From the NCBI GenBank assembly GCA_036785375.1, contig JAWMAR010000269.1, positions 2,418,001 to 2,482,000 of the forward strand: 64,000 bases of DNA, read 5' to 3'. Origin of the DNA: Leucoraja ocellata (lineage: Eukaryota). The stretch's first letter is position 1. Each line of letters begins with the position of its first letter. The notes under the pieces were generated by a model. It saw only the letters and a program-made list of their open reading frames with translations. It did not search any database and was not told the DNA's origin. Below are positions 3,872-58,652 of the stretch, piece after piece. The position numbers and the translations under genes are program-made.

Positions 3872-3958
3872 CTGGACACAAAATGCCGGAGTAACTCCAG
3901 GCAGCATTTCTGGAGACAAGGAATGGGTGATGTTTCGTGTCGAGACCCTTCTTCAGAT
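3872..3958 (-). mobile_element. Penelope-derived short element with hammerhead-like motif
   Basis: Minus strand 3928-3956 reads CTGAAGAAGGGTCTCGACACGAAACATCA, followed by the family tail. Confidence 0.8.
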
Positions 3959-4429
3959 TTTGCTTGTCTCTCTCGACATTCAGTTTGATCTGAGTCTCCT
4001 TCATTCTTTTTAATAATTTTATGCAGCGTTATAATTTTAATTTAAAGTATTTACAATAAACAATGGTTTGACCAAAGCATTGCATATGCCACCCATTGAG
4101 AATTATAATTCCCCAGTCCACCCCTCAACTTTGTAATGATTATTACATTTATGTTCTCATGTTATGTTCTCATCAAACAGTGTACATGATGAAACCCTAT
4201 CATAGTATGTCGATCTTTACTACTTTACCCTTTATCCTCCCCAGTTACAATTTTAAAAGCCCAGCCTCTTGCACCTCTGCACAACTAAAGCACTTTATTC
4301 TTGATTAGTTCCAATGGATTTACACTTTAATCTTTCCCTTGGTTTTATATTCGTCTCACAGTGCTTGAATCTCCTTTAATTCCTCTGACTTTGACCATCT
4401 TAGTCAAGCACAATCTGACAAAATCAAAT

Positions 4430-4600
4430 AGCTGCAGATGCTGAAAATCTGAAATTAAAACAGAACACGGTGGGAACACCCTGCAGGTCAAGCAGCGTCT
4501 GTGGAAAGCGAAATAGGTCAAAACTATTTGCCAGAGTTCCTTGTTGACAAATGCTGCCTGACCTGCTGAGTATTTCCAGCATTTTCTCTTTTTATTTACA
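4430..4600. mobile_element. Older fold-back Penelope-derived element
   Basis: ctgcagatgctg...ctgcaggtcaagcagcgtct is inverted relative to atgctgcctgacctgctgagtatttccagcattttct. Confidence 0.6.
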
Positions 4601-5039
4601 ATCTAACAATCTGACAAAATCTTTGCTGGATGAATAAAGCAAACCTTTACTTACACATCACAGAGCACAACTTATTCAGAAATTATATTTTAATGAGCAA
4701 TCTACATACCTACATAGTGAACCAAAGGATAATTGAGCCAATTAAACCATTAATTAGTAGTGACTTTCTTTTGTCACAATTTTTAATTACCAAAAAATAT
4801 ATGATAAGATCGCTGTTAACTTTTCATATCACAGTGTACAGCTGAAATACTTGTGAAGATATCTATTATAAGATTAGTCTTGGGTTAGCATTGTTTAATC
4901 TATTTGAAGTGATATTGCGTACGTTAAAACATGAGAATAACAGGAGCTAGAGCAGTCCTCACAAGCCTGTCTCACTATTCATTATGATCATAGCTGCTAT
5001 ACCCCAGGCCTGATCTCATCTATGCTAATTTCTCCTTGC

Positions 5040-10470: not shown

Positions 10471-11397
10471 TTTTTAAATGTAAGCACTGCTGCGTTTTAG
10501 ACAAAATATGGGCGACAAATTTGTACACATTATTTCGATAATTGTATGTATGGTCAGTTCCACATTGTTGTGCATTTAGATAAGAAACAGTGTCCAGGGC
10601 ATAGTCAGAACTTGCTACAAGAAGAGAGCGAGCAAGCAGGACATTTCATGCCAATTTCAACAATGAGCGTTCTCTTAATATTGGAGAATGCTAGTTCATG
10701 CATGTGAAGCGATTACTTTCTATGATAAGACCCCGGTAAATTGATGCTTGCCATTGATGTTGAACTTTTTGTTGTTTCTTGATCCAGTGGCAGCAGTTGG
10801 AAATTGGACACATTTCACTGATGAGGCTTGAAGGAAAGTGTCTGCGAGGCACTATTGCAACACTTCCAAGACTGTACTTTCCAGTGGGGGCTATTTTTCC
10901 CCCACTTCAAACTAATTCCATGCAGCTGCATTATATTACTCAAGAACCAATGGAAAGATATGGTGGGACAAGTTTCAAATTATAAAGACTGACCCTAGTC
11001 AGAATGTGCACAAAATAACTATGTGGGGAATCAATAACAGCTATTGAGTGTTCTAGTCCAGAAATCGTACGCCTGACATTAACAAATCACATCTGCTCAG
11101 TGAAATATTGTCAGCCAGTGTTTTAGAGTGAAGCCACTAAAACCAATTATTTTGTTAAGTAAATTTAATGGAATAATCATTTGGTTCCTCTTTTTTTTCA
11201 TCCTTAATGTACTAATTATTTCATAATAAAGCTCAAAAATCCTCTTGTAACTGAACCTCAAAGTATACCCATCTATCCACTGTGTTTAGGAGTTGCATTC
11301 TATGCCATGACCTCATGCTTTTGGGTCATTGCCCCATATATTTGCAAGGCCCATGGTACTAAATCAGCAAGGGTGCAAGGAAGAGTGAAGTAAAGAT

Positions 11398-11571
11398 GTG
11401 TAGGAAGGAAATGCAGATACTGGTTTACACCAAAGATAGACACACAAACCAATTAACACGGCGGGTCAGGCAGTATCTCTGGAGAAAATGAATAGGTGAC
11501 GTCACCTATTCCTTTTCTCCAGAGATGCTGCCTGACCCGCTGAGTTACTCCAGCATTTTGTGTCCATCTTC
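11398..11571. mobile_element. Fold-back Penelope-derived element
   Basis: 40-bp arms 11461-11500 / 11501-11540 with 2 mismatches and no spacer, centred on GAC|GTC. Confidence 0.9.
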
Positions 11572-11667
11572 AGTGAAGTTAGATAATGGGTGCGTAAGAT
11601 GTTGACGTGGTTAGCCTCATGGGCAGACTGAATATCAGTGGAAAGGTTTCTGCAGAGATCTGGCACG

Positions 11668-23317: not shown

Positions 23318-23440
23318 CAGAAACAAAGAACTGCAGATGCTGGTTTTACAAAAAAAGACACAGAGTGCTGGATTAACTCAGTAGGTCAGGCAACATCTCT
23401 GGATGACATGGAGGGGTGACGTTTCGGGTCGGGATTCTCA
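23318..23440 (-). mobile_element. Penelope-derived short element, truncated inside the hammerhead motif
   Basis: gaactgcagatgctgg...ggtgacgtttcgggtcggga. Confidence 0.75.
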
Positions 23441-23734
23441 TTTCACAATTGTTACAATCATCTGTACATAAGAACATATTAATTCTACTTGTGGTACAGG
23501 AGAGCTGCATTAGATTGGAAGTTCAAAAACATGGGAACCCAAATCAAGTGACTATGGAGGCAAGGGGAAGGGATTTTTTGTTGCGCACCTTATGCAAGGA
23601 ACGTTACTTTAAAATATACTTTTAAAATATACTCTAAGATATACTTTAAAATGTAATTTCTTGCAAGCCAGGAGTTTTAGAAGAGGAACTGCCTCTTATG
23701 ATAGTAACCCTTGGTGCAACTCCAAAACCAAGAA

Positions 23735-24792: not shown

Positions 24793-25621
24793 TAACGGAT
24801 TATAAGCAGGATTGAGCATTCCAGGTCTCTGGACAATTGGACATCTTAGAGACACTTCTCTAGTGACACCTAGAGTAAGCATAAGAATAGTCAAGCCAAA
24901 TCTACTCTGCCTTCCAAAAAAATAAATTAAGCTTACCTCTAATATTTAGAACTCTGGTCCAAAAGTTAAAATTGCAGTTTAGATATGGACTACAATGTAA
25001 TGTGGAGCAAGCTTCCATTCTTCCATTTTTGCATTGATGTTTTATGCAGTTTCTTAATCACTTTTGTACACTTCAATCAGATATGTTTTGTGCAGCTATC
25101 ATCATCACTGGCTTGAGCCCATTTACCAGCTTCAGTACCAGTGTACATCACATACATGGAGGAGAGTGATATAATTTCACCTTAAACATTGAAGCATTTC
25201 ATTGATTTTCAGCTTCAGATCAATGAGGATGAATATAACAATGTATCCACTATCTAGTAGAATTTCTAAGCTATTAAGTGTAAGAATTAAAATGTCTGCA
25301 GATACTGCTGAAACCATCAAAGATGTTATTATATTTCCATGATGTTCTCAGCCATTGACTACTGAATATATGCTGTAAGTGAAAGATCTCTCCTGACTTG
25401 CTAATTGACTTGAGCCCAGTTGATTAAACAGATGGGTATATCTGTTGCTGAAGTTTAATGTGCTAAATGACAGAAATAATCAGATTTTGTAAAAACCAAG
25501 TTAACACACTAGGCAGTTCCACTTTTCAACAGATTTTGAACTGATGTAGGTTTAGTCGATTTTTAAGCAGAGAAATGGTACTGCTACTTCCGTAAGTAGA
25601 GAAATACACCAGAACAGCTTC

Positions 25622-25721
25622 AGGCTGAAGAAGGGTCTCGACCCGAAACGTCACCCATTCCTTCTCTCCAGAGATGCTGCCTCACCCGCTCAGTTACTCC
25701 AGCATTTTGTGTCTACCTTCG
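25622..25721 (+). mobile_element. Penelope-derived short element
   Basis: Hammerhead motif followed by cccattccttctctccagagatgctgcc...cagcattttgtgtct. Confidence 0.85.
25625..25653 (+). ncRNA. Minimal type I hammerhead ribozyme motif
   Basis: CTGAAGA-A-GGGT(CTCG)ACCC-GAAA-CG-TC; intact core and helix II, palindromic ACGT helix III; activity untested. Confidence 0.75.
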
Positions 25722-32758: not shown

Positions 32759-33149
32759 AATTATCGTGGATGGTCTCAGTCAACTGTTTTTCTATCTGTA
32801 TTAAGGTGCATCTCAATTTTAAAAATGTCCATCGGCATAGGAAAATTAAATTGCTCCAATCTAAAGCAAGCACTGATGCAGATATCGTCGATGAAATAGT
32901 CTCTCCACATCTTGAAAATTCAATGCAAAGTGATCTGCTCATTTGTTTTTCCAATAATCCTGCATGTCACCCATTTTTCGACGTCTTAATCTTTGGGAAG
33001 AAGTCTTTAAGAATAATTTACAGCTTCTGGATTTGTGTTGTTAGTCAGGGGCAGTAACAATGAGACATCATGGCCTACTGACAAATGGCTTCCAATCAAT
33101 AACTAGATAACACTTGCTTAGAGACCTGATTTTACTCCGCAGATAACAA

Positions 33150-33435: not shown

Positions 33436-33767
33436 CTTTTGTCTAAATGAATTATTATCAGTAGATTTTAAAGGAAGGTTATGCATGTTAGATATCATTT
33501 TGCTCAACGCTGTGTGACTCTTTAAATAAGAAACTAACAGTAATAACCAAGAGAAATCTGGTTAAATGCACATTTAAGACATGTGTAATATTCCAGTCTG
33601 TAATATTCCATTATGTTTCAATTCAAACAATCCATTCCCAAGTATTATATTTCTTGTTAGATGTTGGCATCTTCAGGTTTATCAGAAGAAATCATGACAT
33701 CAATCAACTTTTCTCAGGAGTCCAAAATAACACCATTCTTCAAATCTAATTAGGAATATCCTGAAAA

Positions 33768-33842
33768 TAAAACTGCTGGAGTATCTCAGCAGGTCAAGCA
33801 CCATCTCTGGAGAAGGATAGATGAAGTTTTGGGTCAGGATGG
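33768..33842 (-). mobile_element. Degenerate Penelope-derived short element
   Basis: tgctggagtatctcagcaggtcaagcaccatctctggagaagg. Confidence 0.55.
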
Positions 33843-34331
33843 GAGTCTCCTGATGCTTGCAAAATGTTCTCAGCATTATCTTACATAACTCATAAATAGT
33901 GATGTAGGATAGGTACGTTGGGACATATTTTCTGTCTGTTTAATATTCAGGCAGATTACAGATACAATTCATTTGGTTTATTCTTTTTATAGTGACCTAG
34001 TTGATGTTGATTGGTATTTTTTCTGACCCATATTTGAACTTCATTGGATGGCTAAAAAATCTTGCTTTTTTAAAGAATTTTCCACCAGAGTAATCGGGAC
34101 TTAGCTGGGATGTATTATTTTGGAGTTTGATCAGTTGAACACTTATTTATATATTGACCATGTTGGTCTAAGGTATACATGTAAGTATACACATGCAGGT
34201 ACTACTGTATATTGGGGTGGTTGAACTTTACGCAGGGATATAATAATGGTAAGAGGGACAATCACACAAGTATCGGCTGGAACTTTGCAGCCTATACAAT
34301 CAACAAAATACTACTACAATCGTGTTGTTTA

Positions 34332-34456
34332 AGTAAGAACTGCAGATGCTGGAAAAATCGAAGGTAGACAAAAATGCTGGATAAACTCAGAGGGTGAGGC
34401 AGCATCGATGGAGCGAAGGAATAGGTGACGTTTCGGGTCGAGACACTTCTTCAGAC
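34332..34456 (-). mobile_element. Penelope-derived short element with hammerhead motif
   Basis: Minus strand 34426-34454 CTGAAGAAGTGTCTCGACCCGAAACGTCA; flanking repeat aatcgtgttgttta / aattgtgttcttta. Confidence 0.85.
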
Positions 34457-36606: not shown

Positions 36607-37419
36607 AAAGGTTATTTATTTATTTCAAGACTCTCAAGGACACCTTACAAAATTTAATAAACAGAATAACAAAACATGTAAGCGGAATGAAACAAAAAAA
36701 AAAAAAAAAAAAAGTAACATAAGGATATTCGGGCAGATAACTAAAAACCTGGTTAAAGAGAAATCTTCTAAGGAACATTTTTATAAAAGAAAAGCGATGT
36801 AGACAGGATAGAAATTCAACAAAGCAGTGAAGTTTACAGAAGGAATTGCCAAAGCTTAGGGTCTTGGTCAGTGAAATCATTGCACATTGAATTCTGGGAT
36901 GATTAACAAACCAGATTACCCAAGTACATATATCAGGAAGGTGACAATGCTGGAAGAGTTTACTAAGGTAGAATGAGGAAAAGAGTTAAAAGCAAATGTG
37001 AATAACTAAAATTAGGTAGCAACCACCTGGATCCATTGTGGATCGGTGTGTGCATATCAGTTGCGGATAAATGGGATTAGAGAAATGGGAAACTTGCATT
37101 GGTAAACATTTACCAATACATGAAGAGTGAAGACAGACTGAGCAATATGGAAAAGTTAAGTCTAGACATTGTAAAGGCTTCTCCAAACTGGAGCGCAATT
37201 TGGTTCAAATTTCTTTTTTTAGGATATTGCTGAGGGCATTGGGGTTAGGGTTATGGTTGTGATAAAAGGAAAGGGGCAAAAAATAGTTTTTTTATAACTA
37301 TTGGAGGTAATCGTACGTGAGCGTGAAGAGAAACCACAGTTTTTAAAGCTTTTTGTTTCCCATTTGCAAGCATTGGCAAAATTGATGGTGCAATTTAAGT
37401 GAACTGTTGAGAATTACAC

Positions 37420-37510
37420 TGAAGGCCACAAAGTACTGGAGTAACTCAGCAGGTCAGGCAGCATATCTGGGGAACATGGATGGGTGACGTTTTGGATTAG
37501 GACCCAGATT
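37420..37510 (-). mobile_element. Degenerate Penelope-derived short element
   Basis: cacaaagtactggagtaactcagcaggtcaggcagcat...gggtgacgttttgg. Confidence 0.7.
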
Positions 37511-37920
37511 TAGGCCGATTGTGTTGATTTACACTGAAATGGTTTGTGGGCCTAAGCAGTACAGTTGCTCCGTGCTGCATTGGATGTACCTAAGAAAGGA
37601 TTGGAGAGCTTAGGGTCTCCCATGCAAAAATATATATTCAATTAACGATCTGGTTTATTGCTGTGACTACACTGACGGCATCAGTTTCTTCTTGACACCC
37701 CAGCAAAGGTGAATATGAGGTATTTCTCATCACAAAGGAGCAGGTTTGTTCCCTGTATTGTACTAGTGTCCTCTCGCGGCCCATGTTACTTTTTCAGTGC
37801 ATATCCATGGTTTATTGTCGCAGAAGCAATGCATGAGGATTGCCATTTCACATGCGTATTTTAAGTCCATGAGAGCTTGTGATCAGAAGTTTCAATGTGT
37901 CCAGTAAGGTCTTGATAGTA

Positions 37921-39449: not shown

Positions 39450-39515
39450 TTGAGTTATTCTAGCTTTTTGTGTCTATCTTCGGTTTAAACCAGTATCTGC
39501 CGTTCCTTCCTACAC
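39450..39515 (+). mobile_element. Penelope-derived tail fragment
   Basis: tgtgtctatcttcggtttaaaccagtatctgccgttccttcctacac, matching 32712-32758. Confidence 0.7.
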
Positions 39516-40965
39516 TGTTGATTGTTTGGCTGATTTCATTAATTTGGAATCAAGGTTTTTTTTAATTGCTTACCTCATTGCAAAGTCAGATTCAGCATGA
39601 ACTTTGTGCTCCAGAGTTTTCTTTATTAACCTTGTTGTAAAAATAAGTTATGAAGGAATTACCATTGGTTTGAGCTGAACACCATTTTGTAATTGCAACA
39701 GTCACATCTTTGGGTATTGCTCGACTGAAAATACAGCCTCTTAGTACTTTAATGTGACATCCAAATCCTTATTTGTCTCCAGTATTGACTCCCTTTTATC
39801 ATATTACTTTATATGGTGTTTCACATTGATTCATATTTCCTCATGCCAAACGTGCTCAATGATTAACATCCATGTTTCAATATTTTTACAATTTGTGTGT
39901 TGAGCACATAATTAATCAACTGTTAATTTATCCTTTCCTTATGTCCGATTCTCATTCTATAGTTACCCTGGTCAATAGTTACTGGTTCGGACATCCAATC
40001 CTCATCCCTTGTATACTTGTGCACCCAGTCAATACAGCAACTAATGCAACTAATTGACTAACTGCTAGCCTCATTTTGGGCCACCTCATTGTGACTAACT
40101 GTCTAGTCTGGCGTGTAACTCTGCACTTGTTGCTGTCTCCTACCATTAACAACCTCTTAACTCTTTGATTGTTTACTCAATATATTTGTATCGGATGCAC
40201 AATGCGACTTTGTCTCATGTTCCTATGATGGTGCATCAGCACCAGAGTCTGAACAACAATATGTGATGAGTGTTTAATTGAGGTGATGCAGAATTAATGA
40301 AAAGGGGTATTTTGTTTGATCCACAGTTTTAAGACAGTTTGGTGATGCAGTTTTCTCCCTTGTCTTTGATTTGGCCCAACTTTAGTTTGACCTTTCTGCA
40401 ACACACATAAACACAGTGGCCAAAGTAGCATTGTGCCTCCGTGCATAGACCCACAGATCCAAGAAGTCATTTTTGGAAGGCATCAATCCATATTTGATGT
40501 TACTGATATCTCTTCATCATTAATCAGATGCTGTAGGCACTTGCCATGCTTGTTGTTTATTAACCCCATTCCAGAATCTTCAATCACACAAATCATTACC
40601 TCCTAGCACTGTCTCTGAAGATGGCTTCTACTCTAACTGTAAGTTCCCATTAAAAAAACTCCCATTAGCAAGAATGGCACCAATACCACTGGAATGGTCC
40701 TGATCATCATCCTATCCAATCAGAATGCCATTCCCATTTAGCAAGGTCTATCTCAACTAATGTTCTCATTCCAAATGAACCATTAATGTAATTACAGTTT
40801 ATGGATATGGGAAACGCTAGTCTCATCGTCCATTATCTTGGCTTTTTAGTTAATAACCAATACAAACTCTGAATATACACTGGATTTGATGACTCTTGAA
40901 GGATTATGGTTTCCATTAGCTTAATCTTTCATTCATTGCATCCTTCCAATCTCCGCCACCAACAT

Positions 40966-41067
40966 AGATAGACATTCTGAAGAAGGGTCCTGACCCGAAA
41001 CGTCACCCATTCCTTCTATTCAGAGATGCTGCCTGCCCCGCTGAGTTACTCCAGGATTTTGTGTCTA
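40966..41067 (+). mobile_element. Penelope-derived short element with TSD
   Basis: Flanked by tccgccaccaacat (40952-40965) / tccgctaccaacat (41068-41081). Confidence 0.9.
40977..41005 (+). ncRNA. Minimal type I hammerhead ribozyme motif
   Basis: CTGAAGA-A-GGGT(CCTG)ACCC-GAAA-CG-TC. Confidence 0.75.
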
Positions 41068-41449
41068 TCCGCTACCAACATGCCAGTTGACTTGTCACCT
41101 TGTCATGTTCTAATGACGCCACAGGTTCTCACCCCCTGGTTGATCATTTTTTGCCAACAATTCAATACCTCTCATAGTGTATTTCTACATGTTATCTAAA
41201 TAAATACAGTTTCCTTCTGACATCTTGCCATTCTGTTCCTATGCATTTCTGCCAAATCTTATGCTCTTTATTACTTAGCTTCTCTGACACCTTTCTCTGC
41301 TCATATTTTGTTTCTAATTTTACAACAGCAATTCCTTTTACTAATTTAACATGAATTAATTGTAAATAGCTCCCTTGGCATTATTGTGTTGACCTATCCA
41401 AGCTCATTTTTATGGCCCCCTTGCAGAAAATCTGTTCAAGCCCATGTAA

Positions 41450-43934: not shown

Positions 43935-45043
43935 AGTTTAAGAGGGAACTGCAGATGCTGGAGAATCGAAGGTTACACAGAAAAGCTGGAGAAACTCAGC
44001 GGGTGCAGCAGCATCTATGGAGCGAAGGAAATAGGCAACGTTTCGGGCCGAAACCCTTCTTCAGACTGATCAGGGGTGGGGGTGGGTGGGGACAAGAAAG
44101 GGAAAAGGAGGAGTAGCCGGAAGGCTGGAGGGTGGGAGGAGAAGGCTGGAGGGTGGGAGGAGACAGCAGGGGAGCTGAGGAAGGGGAGGAGACAGCAAGG
44201 ACTAACAGAATTGGGAGAAGTCGATGTTCATGCCCCCGGGGTGCAGACTCCCCAAACGGAATATGAGGTGCTGTTCCTCCAATTTCCGGTGCTGCTCGCT
44301 GTGGCCATGGAGGAGACCCAGGACAGAGAGGTCGGAGGCGGAGTGGGAGGGGGAGTTGAAGTGCTGAGCCACCGGGAGGTCAGCTAGGTTATTGCGGACC
44401 GAGCGGAGGTGTTCGGCGAAACGATCGCCCAACCTCCGCTTGGTCTCACCGATATAGATCTGCTGACATCTAGAGCAGCGGACGCAATAGATGAGGTTGG
44501 AAGAGATGCAGGTAAACCTCTGTCGCACCTGGAACGATTGCTTGGGTCCCTGAACGGAGTTGAGGGGGGAGGTAAAGGGACAAGTGTTGCATCTCCTGCG
44601 GCCGCAAGGGAAAGTGCCCGGGGAGGGGGTGGACCGAGAGGGAAGGGAAGAATTGACAAGGGAGTTATGGAGGGAGCGGTCTTTGCGGAAGGCAGATATG
44701 GGGGGAGATGGGAAGATGTGGCTAGTAGTGGGGTCACGTTGGAGGTGGCGAAACTGACGGAGGATTATTTTTTGTATGTGATGGCTGGTGGGGTGAAAGG
44801 TGAGGACTAGGGGGACTCGGCCCTTGTTGCGAGTGCGGGGATGGGGAGAGAGAGCAGTGTTGCGGGGTATGGAAGAGACCCTGGTGCGAGCCTCATTTAT
44901 GGTGGAGGAGGGGAACCCCCGTTCCCTGAATAGTGAGGACATTTCAGATGTCCTGGTGTGGAACGCCTCATCCGTGGAGCAGATGCGGCGTAGACGGAGG
45001 AATTGGGAGTAGGGGATGGAGTCCTTACAGGAAGTAGGGTGGG
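43935..45043 (-). mobile_element. 5'-truncated Penelope-like element (Neptune-type): RT C-terminus, Cys linker, GIY-YIG endonuclease and hammerhead-bearing 3' end
   Basis: ORF 44202-45137: HPTSCKDSIPYSQFLRLRRICS...CGRRRCNTC...NLIYCVRCSRCQQIYIGETKRRLGDRFAEH...VAQHF...EEQHLIFRLGSLHPGGMN; similarity is lost beyond ~45043. Confidence 0.93.
44037..44064 (-). ncRNA. Minimal hammerhead ribozyme motif in the Penelope 3' end
   Basis: Minus strand CTGAAGA-A-GGGT(TTCG)GCCC-GAAA-CG-TT. Confidence 0.75.
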
Positions 45044-45845: not shown

Positions 45846-45867
45846 TTACATTTTTTTCGTGGCGACT

Positions 45868-46626
45868 CGAGGAACTGCAGATGCTGCTTTATAAAAAAGA
45901 CACCAAAGACACGGGCAGCGTCTCTGGAGAACGCTGGAGACATTTTAGATCGGGACTCTCCTTCAGGCCAATTGTAGTGGGGATGATACATGTGGAGGGG
46001 GAGAGAGGGTTGATTGGCGGATGGATGGACAAAGGCCAAAGATGAAAAGACAAAAATTGTGAGATAAGGAGATAAGAATATAAAATGTGCTAATTGTGAA
46101 GCCAGTGGAAAGAATATAGGTGGATGGGGCTGGGGGGAGTTGGAAGGGTGGCAATGGGTGCAAATCAAGGTGGGGCACAGGGAAGCGGGCAGGGGACAGC
46201 ACCTCATATTTCACTTGGATAGTTTACAGCCCAAAGGTATGTACATTAAATTCTCTAATTTGACTAACTAATCTCTATAAATGAACCTCTTTCTCCTCCC
46301 CTCCTCCTCCCTGTGCCCCATTGGGATTTGCACCCATTTCTCCCCCCCCCCCCCCCCCCCCCATCACCTTCCACCTATATTTCTTCATCTGGCATCACAA
46401 CATGTACCTCGTATATCCTTATCTCCTTATCACACACATTTGTTCTCATGCCTGGCTTTTGTCAATCAACCTCCTTCCCCCTCACCTGTATCCACCTATC
46501 ACTTGTCAGGTTTTGTCCTGCCCCCACCTTTCTTTCAGCTCTACCCCTCACTGCAATCAGTCTGAAGAAAGGCCCCAACCCAAAATGTCCGGCCTGAACC
46601 ATTGAGTTACTCCCACTCTTTGTGTA
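45868..46626. mobile_element. Penelope remnant with an inverted 5' copy of its tail
   Basis: 45868-46197 is a minus-strand tail; 46198-46626 is plus-strand, with the GIY-YIG C-terminus (HLIFHLDSLQPKGMYIKFSN), tail and a degenerate hammerhead at 46562-46590. Confidence 0.8.
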
Positions 46627-48656
46627 CAATTTTTCATGCTCTTCTATTCATTTACTTGGATTCAGTTTTTTTAATCTAACAGACCTGTGTATTTGCAGTC
46701 ATTACTCTAACAATGGGATAACGTTATTGTATTTATAAAGTGAAAAATATAATGAAAACATAAAAATTACTAATTAATGTAGATACCTTGAATTTTCTGT
46801 CTTAAAACTTATAGTTGTAGATAAATACTCTAACAAAGTCATAGAACCTTATTGCATAAAAGGAAGTCATTTGGCATATTGTGTTTACAGCCTTCCCCTC
46901 AAAGACCTATTCACTTAGTTCGATTCCTTTAACTCTCTTATATTGTTTATATTTCAAGTATTTATCCATTTTCTTTATAAACAAGATAATGATATTTTGT
47001 TTCCACCGCAGTATTTCATACAATGTTCTTTCTCTGGTCCATTAACTGTCCAGAGAAAATGTAGCCAACCTCTCCTGTTCTCCTGTTGTGATGTTGAAAT
47101 AAGTTAAACATTTCTCCTCAATTTCACACAACCTTCGATGATGGGGTATTAAAGCCAGAATCTACAGCTTACAATTGTTTTTATTTTTTAACGCACATGA
47201 AACAAATCTTGATATTTAATATGTAATATAATTAGCATGTAAAATAGGAAAATATGGGTATGAAATGTGGTTGTGTAAAATCTGATAACATATTAAAATT
47301 ATATTGTGAAATATTGATATTCCAGCTCTTTACCTGTGTGGAATATTGAAAGAAAACAGTCACTTGCGTCAATATAATTGGGTGGAACCAAAGTTACATT
47401 CCATACCAATGTAGCACTGATTGCTATTGGAATTACTCCATAAAATCATTCAACATATTTTCTTGACATATATTGGACAGCTGATTTGATTTACTTTGAA
47501 AGCTAGTTCACTTTGATAATTATCTAATGCAATTTCTCATTGTTGTATTAAATAATTGAAGAAGGATTTTGATATGGTGTTACGAAGCTCCATTAAAATA
47601 ACTCAAAATGCTCTTTCTACTTGCTAACAAAGCATTTTTATAACAAGAATATATATGTGCAAACCTACACATACTTATTCAATGAGCATTATTTTCCAGC
47701 AGAAACAATGGTGGGGTTATTGGTGTTACAATGTTGAAGCATATATTAAACGGTGAGTTATATCAACTGCATTAGCACAATAAAAATTCCAGATGAGGAG
47801 GGTACTACTGAAGTTCCTGCTCCTTGAGTGCAGAATTCAACCAACATGGTATCTTGAAGAAAGGATTAGCGTTCAAATATACAGAATGACACAAGGTTTG
47901 CTACAGTCTTGTTATGAAGAGCCATGAAACTCATTTGAAAAGATAACGACTTGTCAACTCCAGTATAGGTAATTTTCTCACAGTGCAATGTCTACATTTT
48001 TGAAAACTTAAGCTGCAGATCATTGCAATTGAATGTTTGCAAGACTAAAATCTAACTCCTCTGAATGTTATTTACTGTTAGAACGAACAAATATCGGAAA
48101 TTACATGAATGTAAATTGAAATACTCAATTTAATCTTCTCCTTCTCTCTATGTTGCTTTCTATAGTTAATTTCATATTGAATTAAACTTTCTAACTTACA
48201 CTTCCTGATTAAAATTTTGAGTTCATTGATAATTATTTAATCCAATTACTTAATGAATATCTGATTTTTTTTCCTGTCTGTAGTGGACCAACCTTTCTTG
48301 AAAAGGGATAATGGAACTTGTAGTTGTTGAAAAGTGAAAATCTGCAGGTGTTGGTAATCTGAAATAAGATCAGAGAATACTGAAAATACTCAGCAAGTCG
48401 AGCAGTAGCCACTGGAAGACAACTAATGAAGGGTCATGTAGCAGAAAAATTAACTAGCAGATTGTTGTAATTTTTGCAATGTCCTTTTGATATTTCCTCC
48501 AACATGTACCTCGGTCTTCAGCCACCTTGATTTGTGCCATGTGATAGCAAGAAATTACTGGAAATGACTGAGGGTAATGGATACTATAACTGATGCCGGA
48601 CCAGACAATATCCCCACTGCCGTATCATAATTACGCTGGAAATGTCATCAAGGAAC

Positions 48657-49914: not shown

Positions 49915-50246
49915 ATACAAATTAGAAACAGGTGCCAGGCATTCTGTTCCTCATGCCTACTCAGTTATTCAATAAAATTGTAGCTGGTCTGATTTTAACC
50001 TCAAACCCGCATTGCTACCTCCTGCCTTTCACCCTTTTGCTTAACAATTATCCATTTACCACTACCTTATAAATATTCACCCCCTTTAGGGATGAGAATT
50101 CCAAAGAGTCTTATTCTCCTGAGTGAAAATAAAGCAACTCATTGCTATCTTAAACGAGTGACCTTATTTTTAAGTAGTGACACCTAGTTCTACAAGAGGA
50201 AGCAATTCATCCACATCCACCCTGACAATACCCTTCAGGATTTTGT
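49915..50246 (-). mobile_element. Old CR1-like LINE 3' fragment
   Basis: Degenerate reverse tail (ttcaataaaattgtagctggtctg...gagaattccaaagagtc). Confidence 0.5.
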
Positions 50247-50400
50247 GCAAGAAAGAACTGCAGATGCTGGTTTACACTGAAGATGGACACAAAATGCTGG
50301 AGTAGCTCAACGGGTCAGGCAGCATCTCTGGATCAGCCTGATAAACGGTCTCAACCCGAAACGTCACCTATTCATTTTCTACAGAGATGCTGCTTGTCCC
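50247..50400. mobile_element. Fold-back Penelope-derived element
   Basis: Minus arm 50247-50331, then a plus-strand degenerate hammerhead at 50338-50366 and tail; flanks cccttcaggattttgt / cctttcaagattttgt. Confidence 0.8.
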
Positions 50401-51866
50401 CCTTTCAAGATTTTGTACTTTTTGAGTCATTTGTCACTATTAGTAATATCAAAATAAATATTACATTTCTGATCTTCTTGGCATGGAGTACCTTTGGATG
50501 CAGCGGGCTTACACATTTATTCTACTCTATATCTTTCAGCCACTGTATGTGGCAAGTGGAAGTCAAGAAAAATAGAATTGTTTTCATATTAATGAAACCT
50601 ATTACAGCTTTCCACTGCCTTACTCAAAATGGAAGATAACTACTAATACAAAGAAGAAATATTTCAGAGAAACAAAATTGTTTGTGCATTTGAGATAGCA
50701 GAGATTAATTCCATTCACCTAATGTCCTATGTCAGTGAATTTCAAGTATGCAGGAATAGATTTTGAAAATAGAATTTCTGCAAAATGTTTACTTATTTTG
50801 TGATTGTTCTGCTGAATTGTATAACTTGCTGCATTCTCTGGTGTCCTTCCAGGTTATTAACTGCAGTAAAGGACTTAGCACTTATATAGGTTGCCACTAA
50901 GTATGGCATCAATTTCAATATGTGTTAATGTTTAATATTGACTATTGGTCATTTAATACCTCTTCCTCAGCAGTCTGCAGTGGTTCAACTTTATCTCTAT
51001 ATAACCTATTGATAAAAGTGAAAAAAAAAACTCCAGAATGTGAGGCCAGCAGGTTAAGTCTCTAAGAGTTTTATCATTCTGTCAAACCAGTCAAGTCCTA
51101 TGCTTTTGATGTGAGGCATATATATATTTCATGGCCCAATCACAATTTCACATGTTCAAAGCATATCACAAATTCCTACAAAGTGCTATCTGGCTTTTTT
51201 TTTAATATCCATGTAAAGGTAAGTGTTCAGGATTTGTAGAAATGTGGCTCACCCCTTCACTGTGACCAAGTTCAATGGATCAGAAAGGGTTCATTGAAAA
51301 TCCACTTGAGCACAGCACAGCAACAATATAACCGTAGAATGTAAGTTTTATCACTGGGCCTTCATGGAAGTAAGGGTTGTAATAATAGTCAATGATTATT
51401 CAATAACTTGCATCCATAAAGAAACATGTACAATGTCAAAAGATATCCGAATGTGCTCAGTAACTGCAAAAGGAAGAAACGAGAATAAAGCCAATCCTTA
51501 GAAAAATATTTGGAACAGGATTTGGTCACATGCTCCGGCTCCCATTTCCTCATTAAGTACATGCATTAAATTTTAGATATATAATCCCCCCATTTAAAAG
51601 ATGGATTCAGAATTGTTTAGAAAGGTTTTAAGCTTTTGGCTGTTGATATTGCCATTGCAATTTCTGCTGAATAGACTGGACAAGGCTTGAATTTTTCACT
51701 CATTTTGGTTGTGTTAGGGGGTGTAATATCATCATCGTAACGTTGCTACAGGCAAAAGCAAAATTGTATTTCTTTAATGAACTGCAACTTAATTGGAAAT
51801 GAACAAATAATGTATACCAGCTGCCCATCCAAAGTTCCCAGTCACTTGACTGCCAGGTCCACTACA

Positions 51867-52010
51867 AAGACAGACACAAAATGCTGGAGTAACTCAGCGG
51901 GACAGGAGGAATGGGTGACGTATCAGGGTGGAGCCCCTTCTTCAGAGTTACTACAACATTTTGTGTCTGTCTTTGGTTTAAACCAGCATCTGTAATTCCC
52001 TCATACACAA
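51867..52010. mobile_element. Fold-back Penelope-derived element
   Basis: aaagacagacacaaaatgctggagtaactc is inverted as gagttactacaacattttgtgtctgtcttt; flanks gtccactaca / gtctactaca. Confidence 0.8.
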
Positions 52011-54327
52011 GTCTACTACATATGTGACTGGTCAGTGGTTAACGCATTTTAAGCACACCTGAAACAATGCTTTAGTTAACACAGTGAAACATTTTGCCAG
52101 CTCAGGGTTTTATCAATGTTAAATAATATACTTTCTAAGAAGATCTACTGGAATATTTTTTCAGTTATTACCATCAGCAAATCAAAAAAAGATTCAAACC
52201 CAAATTGTAGATGAAATAAACTCTAAAATATACAGGAATGTAACTGTTACTCTGTCCCTACTTGATGCACAAAACAGCCCTGAACAATACAGGGGTGATT
52301 GTGAGATGTCTGACAAACCTACCCACATGTACTGTGCTGACATGGAAACTCCATGTTTCTTACATTTATTCTGATCCCCAAAATGAGAAAGAAAGCTGAG
52401 AAACAGCACAACATGCAAGAGAGATTTTAAACAAAACTTTTGTTTGGGAAGAGAAAAGGAGGAAAACAGGGAATGACAGGGAAGGTATGCAGGTTGCAGG
52501 TCTGTTGTATGTTTACATGGTTGAAGTGCATATTGCACGAGGTTAGGGTTTATTTTTAAGTATTCATTGTAATGTAATTAAATGCAATTGCAGTCATAAA
52601 CTAATGTTTGAAAAGCTTTATTAATGATCGTAATGTAAAAATGACTCTTGTGTGAATAGAAAATGTAGAAATTTAATAGAAAATTATCTCTGCTGGGAAA
52701 TTTCCCTGCGCTGTGCAATCTTTTATTTTGACTAATCTTATTTAGGTTATTTTACTGGGGACAAAATTGGACTGGGGTAGTTTTGCGTGATTTGCCCGGT
52801 GCCCTGTTAATGCAGTGCTGGTCTCTCATTGTTGTGATTCCTGCAGCCATGAGCATTCTTCATGCTATTGATTTCCTGATGACCTAACCGCAGAGCTTAA
52901 TTCCATCATTGGCTGGCATCAATTTCAGCACTGATTAAAGCCAACCCACTCCTTGAAGGGGAGATGCATTGTAGCTGAAACCAGTGGGGAAATCACTTTT
53001 AACACTTGTTGGAACTGATAGCAGAACATGAGTGAGCATGGATACCCAAATGGGTCTCCACTGTGATCGATATGCGCAGCAGCTGAGGTGGGCTGGTGGT
53101 TGAGGGAATGATTATAATGACTTAATCCCGACTCCTGGTTCATTGGATTGAATCAATCCACATATAAATGCATTGGTATTGTTCGTAAAGTGCCAGGTAG
53201 TGTTTATACCAAGCAGAATCAACAGTGTAATTGTTAGACTGTTGAGTATGATATAAACTTAGCTGTTACTGTTGTAATAGATTACTTCCAGTTCCATAAA
53301 TCATTTCATGCTTAAAAGCAAAGAAAGAAATTGGAAGGGAGTAATTAATTTTCGAGACCTACTACATAATTGAGAACATGCTGTCAAATTTGTACGAGTT
53401 AATTTAATTTCTCCTTGACTCCCTAAGAATTCTATTGACATGTTTTTAAAAGAGCTTTCTACTACACCTGGCTGGGGGATCAACTTTTATGTACTTTAAT
53501 TACTGAAAAGAAATCTCTAAAGAGAGCTATTATAGCCAGGATCCGATTTGACCTGACAAATGAATAAGAATTACCCCCAAAAAGTCTTACGACAACAAGC
53601 TTTAATTGGGGATCTATTGGGAGATGTTTCAAAAAGAAAGATGAATTCTGCATAAAATCATTGCAGTTTGATTTTTTTTAAATTCAATTTGATTGCACAA
53701 TGTCATTTTTATATTCACATAAAAATATGATAGCTGGTTTGGACTTACTGCCATCTTCTCCACTGATATTTATAGCTAACACTATGACGTTTATAGGGAT
53801 GGCTGAGTTATATGATAATGCTACGTAGGCTTAATTTTTGATGTATTAAATGCAGGTCATTTTAATCTGATCCGGGAACTTTATAATGGTTTTACTCATT
53901 AAAAAATATTGTTAATGGAAGTGCTTGTTTATTGTTTAAACTCCCTGAATCATTTATAAGATCTGCATACTCAATGGGAAGATGTCACCCATTCAAGAGA
54001 GGTTGTTTTGTTCTATAGAGGGCTTTGAATATACCTAGCAAAAATATGAATAGAGCAAAATCCTATAAGGTTTATTCTATACAAGGTATGAGCAGAGGTA
54101 CTGTTTAAAAATAAACCTAACACATATTTGGCCCAAATTACAGATCGCTATGATTTGAACTTCCTTTGCGGTAATAAATCTAATTTGTACATCGAGCATG
54201 TGGGCAAATTAGTTGGAATAGTTGTGAAACAGCATCTATGGACACACCCACTCCCACCAAGAATGAGAATAGGATAGAGAGTGCACAGATTCTCATATGC
54301 AACAGTGGGGATCCTGGTGGAATAGAT

Positions 54328-54505: not shown

Positions 54506-57174
54506 TGGCAGGTTAATCCACAAAGATTTTTGCTATCTCCCGAGCTCCTTGCATGTACAATTTCAGAGGACTTTACTTCTGAACTTTTGGTTGTGACCTC
54601 CAGCATTTCTGTTAAGAACTGTGGACGATGTGGTTTGGAATACTGGTATCCCAGACCTGCTATTTACAGGGCAGTTTAATCTTAGTGACTACTCGGGGAA
54701 CAGGAGATAAACTCTCCATTTGCAATTGTAAACCCATCTTCAAACTCTCATCTTCTCCTTTATAATGAAACTCTTAGGTTGAGGAAGATTTATTTCCACT
54801 CTGACTTAGTGCATTCTGAGATGGCTGTTGAACCCAATGTGGGAACTGCAAGTTCTTCCAGAGACAGGGGATGCTTGACTGGGGCACATGGATAAGTGGT
54901 TTTTGAGATGGTTCACTCTTGCCATTGCCTATGTATGTGTGCTCCCAATGCAAGGCATCAAAGTTCCCAATACTACAGTGAATGACATTTCTTTCCTCTG
55001 AGTGGTCAAGAGGCAGGAAAATCAAGTCCAACAAGCCTTCTATCTTTTCCTTTGCATAGCTGCAAAGTCCTTCCAATGAAAGGGCTCGGGGTAGAATGTC
55101 TGTTTTTGGTGTCCTATGCCGGGCATATGAACAACATGGCCAGCACTGTATGTTGGGTCTCAAAGCTGTAATGTTAGCCGAGGAGTGGACACTGAAATTG
55201 GTTGCTAATCCATTCAGTGAATTTGTAGGATATTGCAGAAAGAACCATCATGGTATCTTTTCAACCTGCTGTTGTTAGACCAAGTTCCAGAAGCATATAG
55301 GAGGGTAGGGATCATTGCTAACTGGTAGACCATGTGTTTTCTGCCAAGTCTGAGATGTTAATCTTTAAACACCTCTTCCGACAGTCAACGAAAGACTGTG
55401 GTTTCCAAGATACGGCAAGAGGTCCTTTTTTTCTAAAGTCCTGCCTTGAACCTTTACTGCCAGCAGGCAATGTGTTGCAGCAAGGGCAGTTTAATGAAGG
55501 ACTCTTATCTTGTGAATGTTCAGTGTTACACTGGCAACTGTTGGATTTTGGGTACCTATAAAGGCCATCCACAATATTGAATGTTTCAATGCTGATTTTG
55601 GTGTCAGGGGATTTGTCAACTGCAGCCATAGTTGCAATTCATAGCTTGATACAGCCAGAAAACTAATCTTCCGACCCTTTAAATCTGCACTGACCATCAA
55701 ATGCCCATCTACAATCATGGCTTTTAAGAAAAATTCTTCTTACATTCTCAACAACTCACTTGCACTCTATGGATAATTTACAGTGGCTAATCAACTTACC
55801 ATCTTCTCCATAGTTTCATGATCTTCTTTGTAGTTCTAATGTAAAACAAATAGAGTTTTGCAGTGTTTTGCTCTAATACTGATACAATAGTAAATAATTT
55901 TGAATGATACTTAGTCGGAAATTAATAAGCCCTGTCATTTACTGGGCAAATAATACATGAAAGCAAAGATGTAGAGGGTTTTTTGAGAAAGCGTAATGAA
56001 ACATAGTAAAAATGGAAGAAAAGGCGACTCTAATCCCTATGCTCTAAATTATGAATTTACTTTTTTTATACCAGAAAATTAATCATGGTTCAGAACTAAA
56101 ATTTCTGAGGCAGTATCGCGTTTTACTGTTTTTCCAGAATATCTAGTAATTGAAAATGCAGAAGAATTGAATTTAATATATTCCATGTGTGTGCTCTCCA
56201 AATCTATTCTCTGTGGAGACTTGCAAACAAACACTAGACCACCATTCAGAGATTCAAATCCCCTTAATTCAAGACAGTTTTCTTTCCTGAGAGTCAATAG
56301 ACTGTCCATACTGCATGGGACAGAGGAAATCGTAAAGATGATTATCCTTCACATTACCGCTACTATTCTTCATGAAGAAATGGCACTACATTGAGAGTCA
56401 CTGCATATAACTTCTGAACAATGTATTGAGAAATGTTCTTCATGGTCCACAGTCTCCTTCACTTCACAACAGATGATGTCAATGCTGCAGACTGTTTTGA
56501 CTGGAGCAAATCGTTTTCCCTTGTCAAGGCAAGGTGATGGCCAATGGTAAAAAAAACAATATAGAGGTCGATGAGGCATTGGAAGTTATTTTGTGGACAT
56601 TGATCTGTCAAAGACATGGACTGAGATGTGGTGCAGAATATGTTTTATAGAATGTACTTTATCTCTGCATTTACATTTCCAATCAGTTCAAGGCAGGTAA
56701 TTCTTTCTATGAGTGCAAATGAGACGTAAAGTCTGGATAAGGTTTATCTTCTGATGTTGGTCCAGGCAGCTCCACACTCTCGCTCCGCAGCATTTAGGAG
56801 AGAGATAAGGTCATCAAAATGCTCCAGCAGTTCTTTAGGCTTTCTAGAGATCTTGGTAAAGCAATCATACTCAGTGAGACCTCTGGTATGTTAAAACAAA
56901 TGCAGCTGGAATTAAATACATTAGGTAGCTTCTTCAAAACATGTTGTGGAATTTAGCTTCTCAGGATGTGCTGCCTCCCCCTAGCTTCTGATTTTAATCT
57001 GCTCCTTTAAGCATTTCGGAAACTGGGAATTCTTAGTTATTCAAAGGAAAAATGGGCGAAATGTTGGGTTTTGATGAGAGATGGGTTATGAAGGGAAGGT
57101 GCGTGTTTGCACCATTTATGGCTTGGAGATGCAGAGGTTATGGTATGAAGAGGAAATGGGATACGAAAAGGGAA

Positions 57175-58330
57175 AGGAACACAAAATGCAGGAGTAACTC
57201 AATGGGTCAGGCACCATCCCTGGAAAAAATGGATCAGTGACATTTCGGGTCAGGTCCCTTCTTCAGACTGATTGTAGTAAGGAGAGTGGGGGGGGGGCTA
57301 AAAACAGGAGAAATCAGGGCCAGCAACAGTTGACCTCAGGCAAGACGGTTGTCTGATAGGCCAATTGTGGGCTAGAGACAAGTGTGAGCCCAAGAGGGAT
57401 ACATAGTTGTCAACTGTGGAGACTTTTACTGGAGGGGGGAGGGTGAAGAGGGAGCTGTTGATGGAAGTTACAAAAAAAGTAATATCCAACATTCATACTG
57501 CTAGGGTGTAGGCTACCCGTGAAATATGAGGTGCTGCTCCTCCAATTTGTATGTGGCCTCATTCTAGCAATGCAGGCGGTCCAGAACAGAAAGGTCATTA
57601 TGGGAATGGGAAGGGGAGTTAAAGTGGCTGCCAACTGGAAGATCCAGTAGGCCTTGGCGGACCAAACTCATGTGTTCAGCAAAACGGTCTACGCTTGGTG
57701 TCACCAATGTACAGGAGCCCACATCGGGAACACCAAATGCAGTAGATGAAGTTAGAGGAGGTATGTGTGTATCTCTGTCTCACCTGGAAGGATTGCTGGG
57801 ACCCCTGTAGGGAGTCAAGGGAGGAGGTATAAGTACAGGTGTTGCATCTCCTGTGGTTGTAGGGAAAAATATCTGGGGAGGGGGTGGTTTGAGTGGGAAG
57901 GGATGTGTGAACCAAGGAGTTGCGGAGGAAGCAGTCTCTAAGCGAGGTGGAGATAGGAAGATATGATTAGTGGTGGGATCTCGTTGGAGGTGATGGAAAT
58001 GTCAGAGGATGATATGTTGGATGCAGAGGCTGGTTGGGTGTCAGAAGACCAGAGGAACTCTGTCCTTGTTGTCTCTGGGGATAGAGGGAGTGAGTGTAGA
58101 ACTCCGAGACACAGAAGAGACATGAGTGATGGAACCATCTATGGCAACTGGGAGGGAAACCAGGTTTTCTAAAGAATGAGGAAATCTTCGATGTATGGAA
58201 AGCCTCTTCTTGGGAGCAGCTGTGGCAGAGACAGAGGAATTGAGAGTCGGGGATAGCATCTTTGCAAGAGGCAGGGTGGGAGGAGGTGTAGCCAAGATAA
58301 CTGTGGGGGTTGGTAGGTATTGTAGATCAG
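57175..58330 (-). mobile_element. Degenerate Penelope-like (Neptune-type) element with hammerhead motif
   Basis: Frameshifted ORFs 57410-58372 (RRCNTC, NFIYCIWCSRCGLLYIGDTKRR, NKDRVPLV) homologous to 44202-45043; minus strand 57238-57266 CTGAAGAAGGGACCTGACCCGAAATGTCA. Confidence 0.88.
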
Positions 58331-58549
58331 TGCATGTTCCTTTAACATAGTGACCTCACCACTACTAACCACTCCCCATTGTCTCTAGTATAATTGTAAG
58401 GTCCCCACCTCCAGCCTGCTCTCTAGCTCCAGTGATGACCACGGACAGCTATTGCATAGTGTCTGTTAGTGATTGTAATAAACAGTTAGTAAAAGACTCT
58501 GTGTAGGATCCAGCCATTTTACAGGTATGTCCACTAAGTCTAGTCCCTG

Positions 58550-58652
58550 GTAGACACAAAATGCTGAGTAACTCAGCGGGACAGGCAGCATCTCTGGAGA
58601 GAAGTAATGGGTGACGTTTCAGGTCGAGTCCCTTCTTCAGACTGGTCTCTTT
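58550..58652 (-). mobile_element. Penelope-derived short element with hammerhead-like motif and TSD
   Basis: Minus strand 58612-58640 CTGAAGAAGGGACTCGACCTGAAACGTCA; flanks gtctagtccctg (58538-58549) / gtttagtccctg (58653-58664). Confidence 0.85.

Follow-up and report, generated by a model that had tools for sequence, protein, structure and literature searches.

Fixed-length pseudo-LTR-end insertions carrying a minimal hammerhead motif in Leucoraja ocellata, likely by-products of a Neptune-type Penelope reverse transcriptase

Template jumping or repeat synthesis is found in the R2 reverse transcriptase (RT) and in telomerase. For DRT2 and DRT10, the parts of the reports available to us describe tandem DNA made by copying a single RNA template again and again (PMC12039810, PMC12632851). 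Insertions of EN+ Penelope-like elements (PLEs) are known to contain partial tandems, an inverted 5'-truncated copy and a 30-40-bp tail (available parts of PMC8557442, PMC2377424 and PMC3846280), and the last of these papers, in the same part, proposes that the inverted copies arise by self-priming on an antisense template. In the anole Poseidon element PAc (Frangieh et al. 2024, PMC11167929), two internal RT starts bound the tail and both strands are extended; about 55-60 nt of downstream RNA, at the start of the ORF, are required for priming in vitro; uncut RNA is dominant, and reads ending at the cut site are absent. The origin of the tandem and inverted structures of Penelope, the role of the hammerhead and the source of animal retrozymes are listed as open questions in PMC2377424, PMC8557442 and bioRxiv 10.64898/2026.07.22.740005.

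We analysed a window of 64,000 nucleotides of the genome of Leucoraja ocellata, for which a preliminary description had listed 13 copies of a hammerhead motif, each located by the start of CUGA on the plus strand and by the end of GUC on the minus strand. At each of the 13 positions the motif is present, intact or decayed, with the common tail behind it, and only five satisfy the descriptor of a minimal hammerhead (cores 25625, 40977, 44064, 57266 and 58640). The density, given as one copy per 5 kb, is actually about one per 2.5 kb by profile matches: a profile built from eight window copies has 28 matches in the window, against 0-2 weak ones (E at least 0.25) in each of 10 shuffles, and a longer profile has 25. 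Below, +1 is the C of CUGA, and the first in-frame ATG is at +165. The features are the following, those marked (new) being absent from the earlier list.

2578..3101, plus strand: two older partial copies, 2578-2649 and 3003-3101 (new)
3872..3959, minus strand: short decayed copy, core 3956
4429..4587, no strand assigned: very old head-to-head pair (new)
11397..11576, no strand assigned: head-to-head pair, its junction an ACGT palindrome that lies upstream of the predicted cut site (new)
23320..23442, minus strand: copy beginning within helix II, full tail
25620..25728, plus strand: short copy, intact minimal hammerhead core 25625; convincing TSD (target-site duplication) not found
32520..32761, no strand assigned: head-to-head pair, junction just upstream of CUGA; one arm stops at about +100, while the tail of the other is full
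33767..33839, minus strand: older partial copy (new)
34325..34456, minus strand: short copy, full tail, mismatch in helix II
37411..37515, minus strand: older decayed copy (new)
39451..39516, plus strand: tail-only fragment (new)
40973..41072, plus strand: short copy, intact core 40977, TSD of 14 bp with 1 mismatch
43936..45043, minus strand: 5'-truncated young autonomous PLE copy (L096), with the end of the GIY-YIG ORF (stop 44202), 3' UTR, hammerhead (C of CUGA at 44064) and a tail ending at +129
45870..46629, no strand assigned: old insertion, probably head-to-head, with UTR and ORF-end remnant and decayed hammerheads at 46562 (plus) and about 45968 (minus)
50242..50403, no strand assigned: head-to-head pair, TSD of 13 bp with 1 mismatch (by eye)
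51856..52011, no strand assigned: head-to-head pair with internal deletions
57174..58317, minus strand: older PLE copy with a broken ORF remnant (57470-58317), UTR and hammerhead at 57266
58548..58644, minus strand: short copy, core 58640, TSD of 12 bp with 1 mismatch

That most copies are non-coding holds in the main, except that three of the 13 (44037, 57238 and 46562) are joined to ORF or UTR remnants. The listed positions 32590/32629, 50338 and 51916 are arms of head-to-head pairs, and the window copies as a whole are monomers or such pairs, never head-to-tail tandems.

The window copies are the pseudo-LTR (pLTR) end of an intact, very young Neptune-type element and of its older subfamilies. 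The last 172 amino acids of the young truncated copy are 100% identical in 150 of 150 scored genome matches, and the intact parent, L101, has an open frame of 1,254 codons and two pLTRs, its tail being 36 nt and its TSD 14 bp long. Its RT and GIY-YIG domains (RVT_1, E 1.9e-6; GIY-YIG, E 0.013) fall just short of the Pfam cut-offs, and the motifs YIDD and LIY..YIG are seen in its translation. The parent is an EN+ PLE, with a single ORF encoding an RT plus, at its C terminus, GIY-YIG, pLTRs formed by partial tandem, an optional 30-40-bp tail and an inverted 5' copy. Its translations contain C-X4-C-XX-C plus CxxC inside the core, by which the Neptune/Nematis clades are defined (PMC8557442); Neptune rather than Nematis is assumed from its occurrence in vertebrates (bioRxiv preprint).

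The motif is, as had been proposed, that of a minimal type I hammerhead of Penelope pLTR origin, with CUGANGA, helix II, GAAA, a palindromic NN and UH. Exact motifs number 85,071 in the genome, and the descriptor matches 46 times in 564 kb, against 0-1 in five shuffles; no Rfam hammerhead model matches the copies at E up to 5, nor does any Rfam tRNA-, 5S- or 7SL-type model. Matches of miRNA type on head-to-head hairpins were set down as chance, and an HDV-like 5' ribozyme was set aside, no consistent P1 helix being found by eye. Helix II is kept, as claimed, and compensatory double changes are absent: 186 copies, a low-power sample of one lineage, have just one-sided wobble changes at subfamily level, and A-T at pair II-1 occurs in five of them, about chance. 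In helix I, which has 4-5 bp in this class of hammerhead, -1:29 of 33 UTR-linked copies is paired in 31 and -2:30 in 30, -3 and -4 are mismatched, and the distal pairs -5:33 and -6:34 form in 26 and 19; copies beginning at -3 or later are without this distal part.

When five window copies were folded, the hammerhead was the predicted monomer MFE fold solely in the copy at 57174..58317, a competing hairpin appearing in the other four. In predicted dimers the active fold ranges from -5.9 to +7.3 kcal/mol, whereas the best fold reaches -21 to -34 kcal/mol; such predictions disfavour self-cleavage as a dimer. There is no fossil trace of cutting after GUC either, since ends do not pile up at the predicted ribozyme cut site: in a set of 3,094 genome matches without A at +22, +29 joins were counted by eye in about 18 of the first 100 listed, a share similar to that of neighbouring positions, while -5 to 0 receives thousands per base, and the cut site is joined directly to the CUGA start in only seven genome copies.

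The ends of the copies are defined on both sides. Among young copies, 12 of 29 begin within 3 nt upstream of CUGA, where 0.8% would be expected (p=3e-18); 5' ends are heaped at -5 to +3: the excess within a window of 6 nt is more than 50-fold, and the stretch 4-61 nt upstream has no ends. The same pattern is found in old subfamilies, about half of 34,488 genome matches end within about 6 nt upstream (judged by eye among 100 matches listed each), and two related organisms have reads or contigs with loose ends at -2 to -6. The 3' ends cluster at +89-97 or +123-136. TSDs of at least 8 bp directly flank 32 of 52 short copies, three of these being false calls caused by inverted arms, against 32 of 300 random sites. 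The TSDs, together with 3' ends that are the two end sites of the element, bear out the claim that Neptune-type machinery inserted the copies.

The 5' boundary has a conserved TCAGT, for which membership in helix I, as its distal strand, is an equally good explanation (-5 pairs with +33 in 26 of 33 copies). An extra G of the kind derived from a cap is not apparent. In a relative, RNA reads from poly(A) and single-cell libraries show no heap of molecule starts and leave the ORF start almost uncovered. Among the sequencing runs listed as carriers, none is registered as RNA. A pyrimidine tract, CAG|TCTGA and, at the stop codon, a donor-like site had suggested an intron, as in D. virilis; this reading was set aside: the branch-like word varies among variants, short copies have no common upstream exon, and the expected joint is absent among the 15 matches listed of a longer set (119 more).

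A new observation concerns insertions of the young subfamily that contain the tail-ORF junction: 33 of 70 are mini-tandems made in a single event, of the form (a..Y)(X..Y)n(X..94/130) inside a single TSD (TSDs were found in 29 of 37 minis). Y lies at 195-293 in 30 of the 33, at 151-153 in two and at 587 in one, positions below about +190 being made detectable by a search pattern that ended at about +141. Junctions are repeated in 17, often over 2-5 laps. One Y is reached from different X in L209 and L188; in L188, X is -117 and the start +95, and the 5' end of L388 is at +84. Both passes end at the same X in L198, L206, L212, L213, L283, L291 and L299. In one of 33 jump products X falls on the -5 to +3 edge, where 12 of 29 simple insertions begin (p=3e-4 for the difference), and a second, differently ascertained set holds more such cases (L193, L206, L212, L213, L209, L279, L283). 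The long copy L287 starts at +5. Both arms of the head-to-head pairs L262, L272, L293 and L402 have X and Y in common. This favours two priming events on a single RNA over the antisense self-priming proposed in the available part of PMC3846280.

We consider it likely that the short copies are fixed-length pLTR-end insertions, by-products of a Neptune-type Penelope RT that starts synthesis within its own RNA and then runs off at a nearby RNA 5' end. The protein would bind the RNA just past the tail, to about +200-290, and nick the target; priming would follow at about +94 or +130, and priming on both target strands would give the head-to-head pairs. On an RNA starting at about -3, synthesis would run off after 95-135 nt, leaving copies of the type seen in the window. 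This RNA end is, by a narrow preference, an internal transcription start; it may otherwise be a nuclease edge, the edge of a protein footprint, or a block. On trimmed fragments the RT would jump from the RNA 5' end to the 3' end and lap again, producing retrozyme-like arrays. Where the template has no such end at -3, as on circular RNA, with read-through of a tandem or when transfer to the 3' pLTR is efficient, long and partial-tandem copies would result. The hammerhead would be carried uncut in the templates, any cutting being likely protein-assisted. The binding region downstream of the tail is postulated by analogy with a Poseidon-clade element; short copies do not contain it, and are probably dead on arrival.

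Ordinary 5' truncations make up about half of the young copies (mean about 760 nt), and the core is uncovered in 125 of 268 sampled copies, mostly through a start inside the module; in rotifers, solo pLTRs without TSDs were put down to recombination, according to the available part of PMC3846280. Yet it is very improbable that the short copies are full-length elements with plain random 5' truncations, or solo pLTRs that recombination or deletion left behind, since their 5' ends are sharply clustered and TSDs bound them; for the copies of the spike, truncation is refuted by the end distribution. Randomly spread ends, which the preliminary description had named as evidence against an independent SINE- or retrozyme-like family, were thus not found. 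Such a family, whose short copies would have transcripts starting at about -3 and be mobilised anew, in trans, by Penelope protein, would account for the SINE-type traits (fixed ends, TSDs, a 3' end common with the partner element) and for the excess of short plus head-to-head over UTR-linked copies, 105 against 38 with a UTR library in which two entries were dropped and one trimmed for inverted copies. Its promoter may sit within the unit, and the available text of PMC3846280 reports that pLTRs sufficed to trans-mobilise host DNA in rotifers. It is unlikely all the same: short and UTR/ORF-linked copies are interleaved on a tree (27 changes against 28.2 when shuffled, 161 of 500 shuffles being as low) whose 95 columns leave 70 of 112 forks open, so that small short-only lineages might escape. 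At this resolution there is no short-only lineage, and a master lineage distinct from the partner element is not supported; the 3' variants of young short copies occur in long copies too, the main old subfamilies include ORF-linked members, and short copies stop before the downstream ORF-start region, with no tandem arrangement in the window.

A further reading keeps the by-product origin and takes the -5 to +3 edge for the limit of 5'-3' decay, or for a polymerase stall at a protein-bound hammerhead domain. The boundary falls where helix I starts, spreads raggedly over about 8 nt and has no cap-G; the scatter of other RNA 5' ends, -32 to -266, fits decay, and the protein of the anole element helps its hammerhead to cut (PMC11167929). 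However, none of 30 long copies reaching the upstream hammerhead stops at the edge on this second pass, which rejects a general polymerase stall, and trimmed cores should abound in jump products, where the edge is rare; we regard this reading as rather doubtful. About equally doubtful is an origin of the mini-tandems from covalently closed small circular RNAs copied by rolling circle (circles were proposed earlier for PLEs, PMC4209133), or from later DNA duplication, instead of end-to-end jumps. Arrays with identical junctions could come from DNA-level duplication or covalent mini-circles: most multi-lap arrays repeat one junction, up to five times, and a 2.5-unit full-length array lies inside one 12-bp TSD, its units 99.9% alike against 97-98% to other copies. 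Against this origin, junctions almost never fall at the ribozyme site (X=+29 once, in L292), and different X with the same Y, like the exact stops at X, call for a linear template whose ends are free. More tentatively than for the short copies, and slightly short of an even chance, we propose that a Penelope RT tethered to a 200-290-nt RNA domain yields all product classes by internal priming and repeated 5'- to 3'-end jumps, with no ribozyme cut. If so, one activity gives strong-stop-like short copies (on the order of a million here), pseudo-LTR tandems and twin-primed head-to-head pairs, and new retrozyme arrays arise in one insertion event.

In a genome with a very young and very abundant element, rare insertions provide base-level coordinates of RT starts, RNA ends and jump points, which translate directly into predictions for the in vitro PLE assay already in use. 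Internal priming followed by run-off or jumps could explain both Penelope tandems and the birth of retrozymes. Annotators are warned that a repeat with fixed ends and TSDs need not be a SINE, and that counting motifs overestimates how many ribozymes are active.

The insertion geometry agrees with the in vitro data on anole PAc (PMC11167929). Contrary to that Poseidon element, ours is Neptune-type and has its hammerhead about 165 nt ahead of the ATG, and the evidence is genomic, not biochemical; the main text of PMC11167929 describes neither a run-off class nor repeated jumps. The insertion structures of described EN+ PLEs are all found in L101 and its relatives, with TSDs of 8-17 bp, whereas the dominant product here, compared with the available descriptions, is a 95-135-bp module. 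Going by the available part of their description, the minimal hammerheads known from PLEs share CUGANGA, one bulged base, a helix II opening with G-C, GAAA, palindromic 15.2-16.2 and UH; they too are mostly single dispersed motifs, which their authors put down to truncated PLEs, and form opposite-strand pairs. They differ from the copies studied here, which have a helix II of 4 bp, a helix I of 2 bp plus an internal loop, a fixed start of single copies that this part does not report, and motifs in the tens to hundreds of thousands, where coelacanth and Xenopus have 4,000-9,000. The mini-arrays, with PLE-derived units of about 190-510 bp and a hammerhead in most units, fit the definition of non-LTR retrozymes (PMC7229834; bioRxiv 10.64898/2026.07.22.740005): head-to-tail hammerhead units, absent among the window copies, are present in these rare arrays elsewhere. 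Each is a single TSD-bounded event, nearly always with its own junction, while the preprint suggests that arrays expand later, through unequal crossover; their hammerhead is minimal instead of canonical, and they are read from genomic DNA. Compared with R2, telomerase and, as far as the available reports go, DRT2/DRT10, the repeated copying is read here from fossils that a telomerase-related RT of a eukaryotic transposon left in the genome, and is taken for a mishap of transposition.

All 13 hammerhead copies that the preliminary description placed in the window proved real on sequence inspection, five of them satisfying a minimal-hammerhead descriptor, and profile searches of the window give 25-28 matches versus 0-2 weak ones per shuffle. 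The descriptor matches 46 times in 564 kb, against 0, 0, 1, 0 and 0 in five shuffles, and the genome holds the exact degenerate motif at 85,071 places (reversed control: 0); no Rfam hammerhead model matching the copies was found. The density had been put at one copy per ~5 kb: stretches chosen at arbitrary positions on large contigs yield 333 profile matches in 680 kb, one per 2.0 kb, or roughly 1.7 million copies when extrapolated to the 3.44-Gb assembly. Genome counts include haplotype duplicates, since one window locus has a near-identical counterpart on contig C131. The repeats are thus real, their reading as a SINE is unsupported, and their interest lies in the mechanism recorded in the insertion ends. 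The window also holds the following features:

59896-63114 (+): frame of 1,072 codons that encodes several C2H2 zinc fingers, which we take to be teashirt (TSHZ)-like; the repeats upstream probably lie within its large intron
10230, 16998, 21746, 41511, 43286, 54379 and others: another abundant repeat, its head tRNA-like (families D7-D9), presumably of the shark HE1/V-SINE type
5285-5592, 6811-7230, 33216-33278: LINE 3' fragments (families D16, D20), assumed from resemblance to be CR1-like; no Pfam match for 6811-7227
~45325-45845: terminal inverted repeats with TTAA-like flanks, likely a non-autonomous DNA transposon, which we suppose to be Kolobok-like; at locus L032 these ends also break up a hammerhead copy
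38143-38436 and 8595-8721: GC-rich inverted repeats, one with 108-nt arms (89%), the other a smaller hairpin
32520-32761: one of the head-to-head pairs, about a third of core-bearing copies, giving 60-100-bp hairpins if transcribed and thus possible double-stranded RNA or editing substrates; in a relative's reads no editing signal was separable for them

The copy at 44037 is the end of a 5'-truncated element, 1.1 kb long, with a GIY-YIG frame. The parent family is very young, since all 150 scored genome matches to the last 172 amino acids of this frame are 100% identical. We number positions in element sense: +1 is the C of CUGA, the predicted cut falls between +28 and +29, and an ATG in frame first occurs at +165. 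Locus L101 is complete, with a 5' pLTR (-390..+94), a 36-nt tail, a 1,254-codon RT and GIY-YIG frame and a 3' pLTR to +94, all flanked by a 14-bp target-site duplication (TSD); it carries the CX4CxxC linker by which PMC8557442 defines Neptune/Nematis elements. Before the RT, about residues 185-520 form a long proline-rich low-complexity region whose length differs between copies, and which resembles the N-rich inserts of rotifer Penelope ORFs. ORF-linked members occur in older subfamilies too, including the one dominant in the window; their 3'UTRs vary in sequence and run from about 85 to 400 nt, but all reach CUGA through the same few bases. Full-length tandem arrays with a period of about 3,950-3,985 (G000:C1:8660001-8680000; C8, 5.61 Mb; C265, 1.70 Mb; C300, 1.14 Mb) are candidate source loci for the long copies.

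Short copies have fixed ends. At the 3' side these are concentrated near +87-101 and near +120-133, which is the optional tail already known for PLEs. Thirty young loci were taken in sequence from C1. The start lies 0-3 nt upstream of CUGA in 13 (one by eye) and at 62 to >1,500 nt in 17, with two pairs of these long loci each being arms of one insertion; none starts at 4-61 nt. With one duplicated locus removed, 12/29 lie at the CUGA edge, where the upstream rate predicts 0.8% (p = 3e-18): the ends are not spread as random 5' truncations, the outcome that the preliminary description had named as fatal to its reading. On the same contig, ~0.37-0.42 Mb and 2.66-2.72 Mb form a large inverted duplication, several loci being doubled with the same flanks. 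TSDs of at least 8 bp surround 32/52 short young copies versus 32/300 random sites (3 of the 32 are false, from inverted arms), and loose ends at -2 to -6, +88-92 and +130 appear in reads of one related organism and contigs of another. The UTR's C at -11 is missing from 13,587 matches across the genome and present in 20,901; by eye, at least 90 of the 100 listed without it are short, as are about 20 of the 100 listed with it, so that about half of all matches are short. The arbitrary sample contains 268 copies, of which 143 include the core; these divide into 59 short, 46 head-to-head, 35 UTR- or ORF-linked and 3 unresolved (null for the long/short classification, 1/200).

An independent SINE- or retrozyme-like family finds no support here. 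Of these 143 copies, 115 fill at least 85 of 95 columns, and on a tree of those 115 the long ones are intermixed with the short ones, the labels needing 27 changes against 28.2 in shuffles (161/500 as low); at the tree's low resolution, this excludes only large short-only clades. Short copies stop at the tail or before it and, by analogy with the anole PLE, where priming requires the first 172 nt of the ORF and starts at 111-118 (PMC11167929), would be unable to prime again.

At non-CpG core positions, 3-9% of 186 copies carry a letter other than the commonest one, a rate similar to that of invariant tail positions. The earlier claim of a variable loop on a conserved helix II holds: loop II differs by subfamily, and helix II, like helix I, changes by wobble only, with no compensatory pairs above chance in either. 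Helix I comprises 2 bp, an internal loop and 1-3 bp reaching -5 to -7; an RNA starting at -3 thus lacks its distal part. Predicted monomers fold no better than shuffles, a competing hairpin being preferred in 4/5, and the active dimer is predicted far higher in energy than the best dimer. Templates were mostly uncut, as those of the anole PLE are in vitro (PMC11167929), since starts at +29 are not enriched, the cut site is joined to a CUGA start in only 7 genome copies, and the joint of the window pair 11397-11576 falls at ACGT, which is upstream of the predicted cut. This does not imply an inactive ribozyme: related motifs cut weakly as dimers (PMC4209133) or only with protein (PMC11167929).

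What produces the edge at -3? A general polymerase stall is rejected: of 30 long copies that extend to the upstream hammerhead, none begins at -5 to +3, and in an overlapping set 1/13 starts at +5. One 12-bp TSD encloses a 2.5-unit array whose units are 99.9% alike versus 97-98% to other copies. Long-copy templates therefore have no end at -3, which could reflect a circle, read-through of a tandem, or transfer to the 3' pLTR that is efficient. We favour a transcription start site, because two studies place an internal promoter in the D. virilis Penelope pLTR (PMC2377424) and an initiator-like word in a rotifer pLTR (PMC3846280), and because edge-started RNAs are rare among the jump products described below (1/33 versus 12/29 simple insertions), as expected if intact mRNAs from a start site have a distant 3' end. 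Against it, edge-started jumps are commoner in other locus sets, no cap-G was found at the edge, and three RNA runs of a relative, which are not start-site libraries, show no pile-up of molecule starts in the 1-5% of each that was read. Depth in the relative's RNA, at most a few tens of reads at the ORF start versus thousands over the hammerhead, also counts against it, and indicates passive transcription of short copies.

Three pattern searches for a tail-ORF junction gave 23, 1,163 and 177 matches. In the last set, the first 100 places correspond to 70 insertions, 33 continuing into the ORF and 37 short, 29 of these with a TSD. The form (a..Y)(X..Y)n(X..94 or 130), with X the point jumped from and Y the point of restart, fits 33/70. 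Y lies at 195-293 in 30 (11 at 262-267), at 151 and 153 in two and at 587 in one, values below 195 being significantly under-represented (p = 1.5e-4); X lies at -32 to -266 in 30 (L188 corrected), and otherwise at +1, +22 and +46. The junction is repeated in 17/33, up to five times, and overlaps by 0-3 nt in most of 13 examined. Arrays with identical junctions could stem from covalent mini-circles or from DNA duplicated later, but both explanations fail for L209, which restarts at +227 from +1, +45 and +139 successively, and for L188, which behaves alike; for seven loci where the same X ends both passes; and for four head-to-head loci with identical X and Y in both arms. These cases suggest that the template was a linear piece of RNA whose ends were free, and that it was copied again and again, starting from both target strands. 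The predicted fold of RNA -6 to +257, a candidate binding domain, beats shuffles (z -2.8) and has hairpins around the ATG and at ~+200-235. Position +45/+46, close to the base of a helix that is predicted to form with the tail, is a recurrent stop or jump point in L188, L209, L291 and L346. L183 and L200 are separate insertions whose junctions almost coincide (+210 to -47/-48), as either a hot spot or a mini-element that propagates would give.

In literature with limited coverage of subscription journals, searches turned up neither a PLE run-off class with a fixed start nor a PLE that jumps repeatedly from end to end. Much of the setting is already known from earlier work: minimal hammerheads as dispersed PLE remnants (PMC4209133), PLE tails and inverted copies (PMC8557442), and PLE-derived retrozymes (PMC7229834; bioRxiv 10.64898/2026.07.22.740005), the last source including one chondrichthyan genome.
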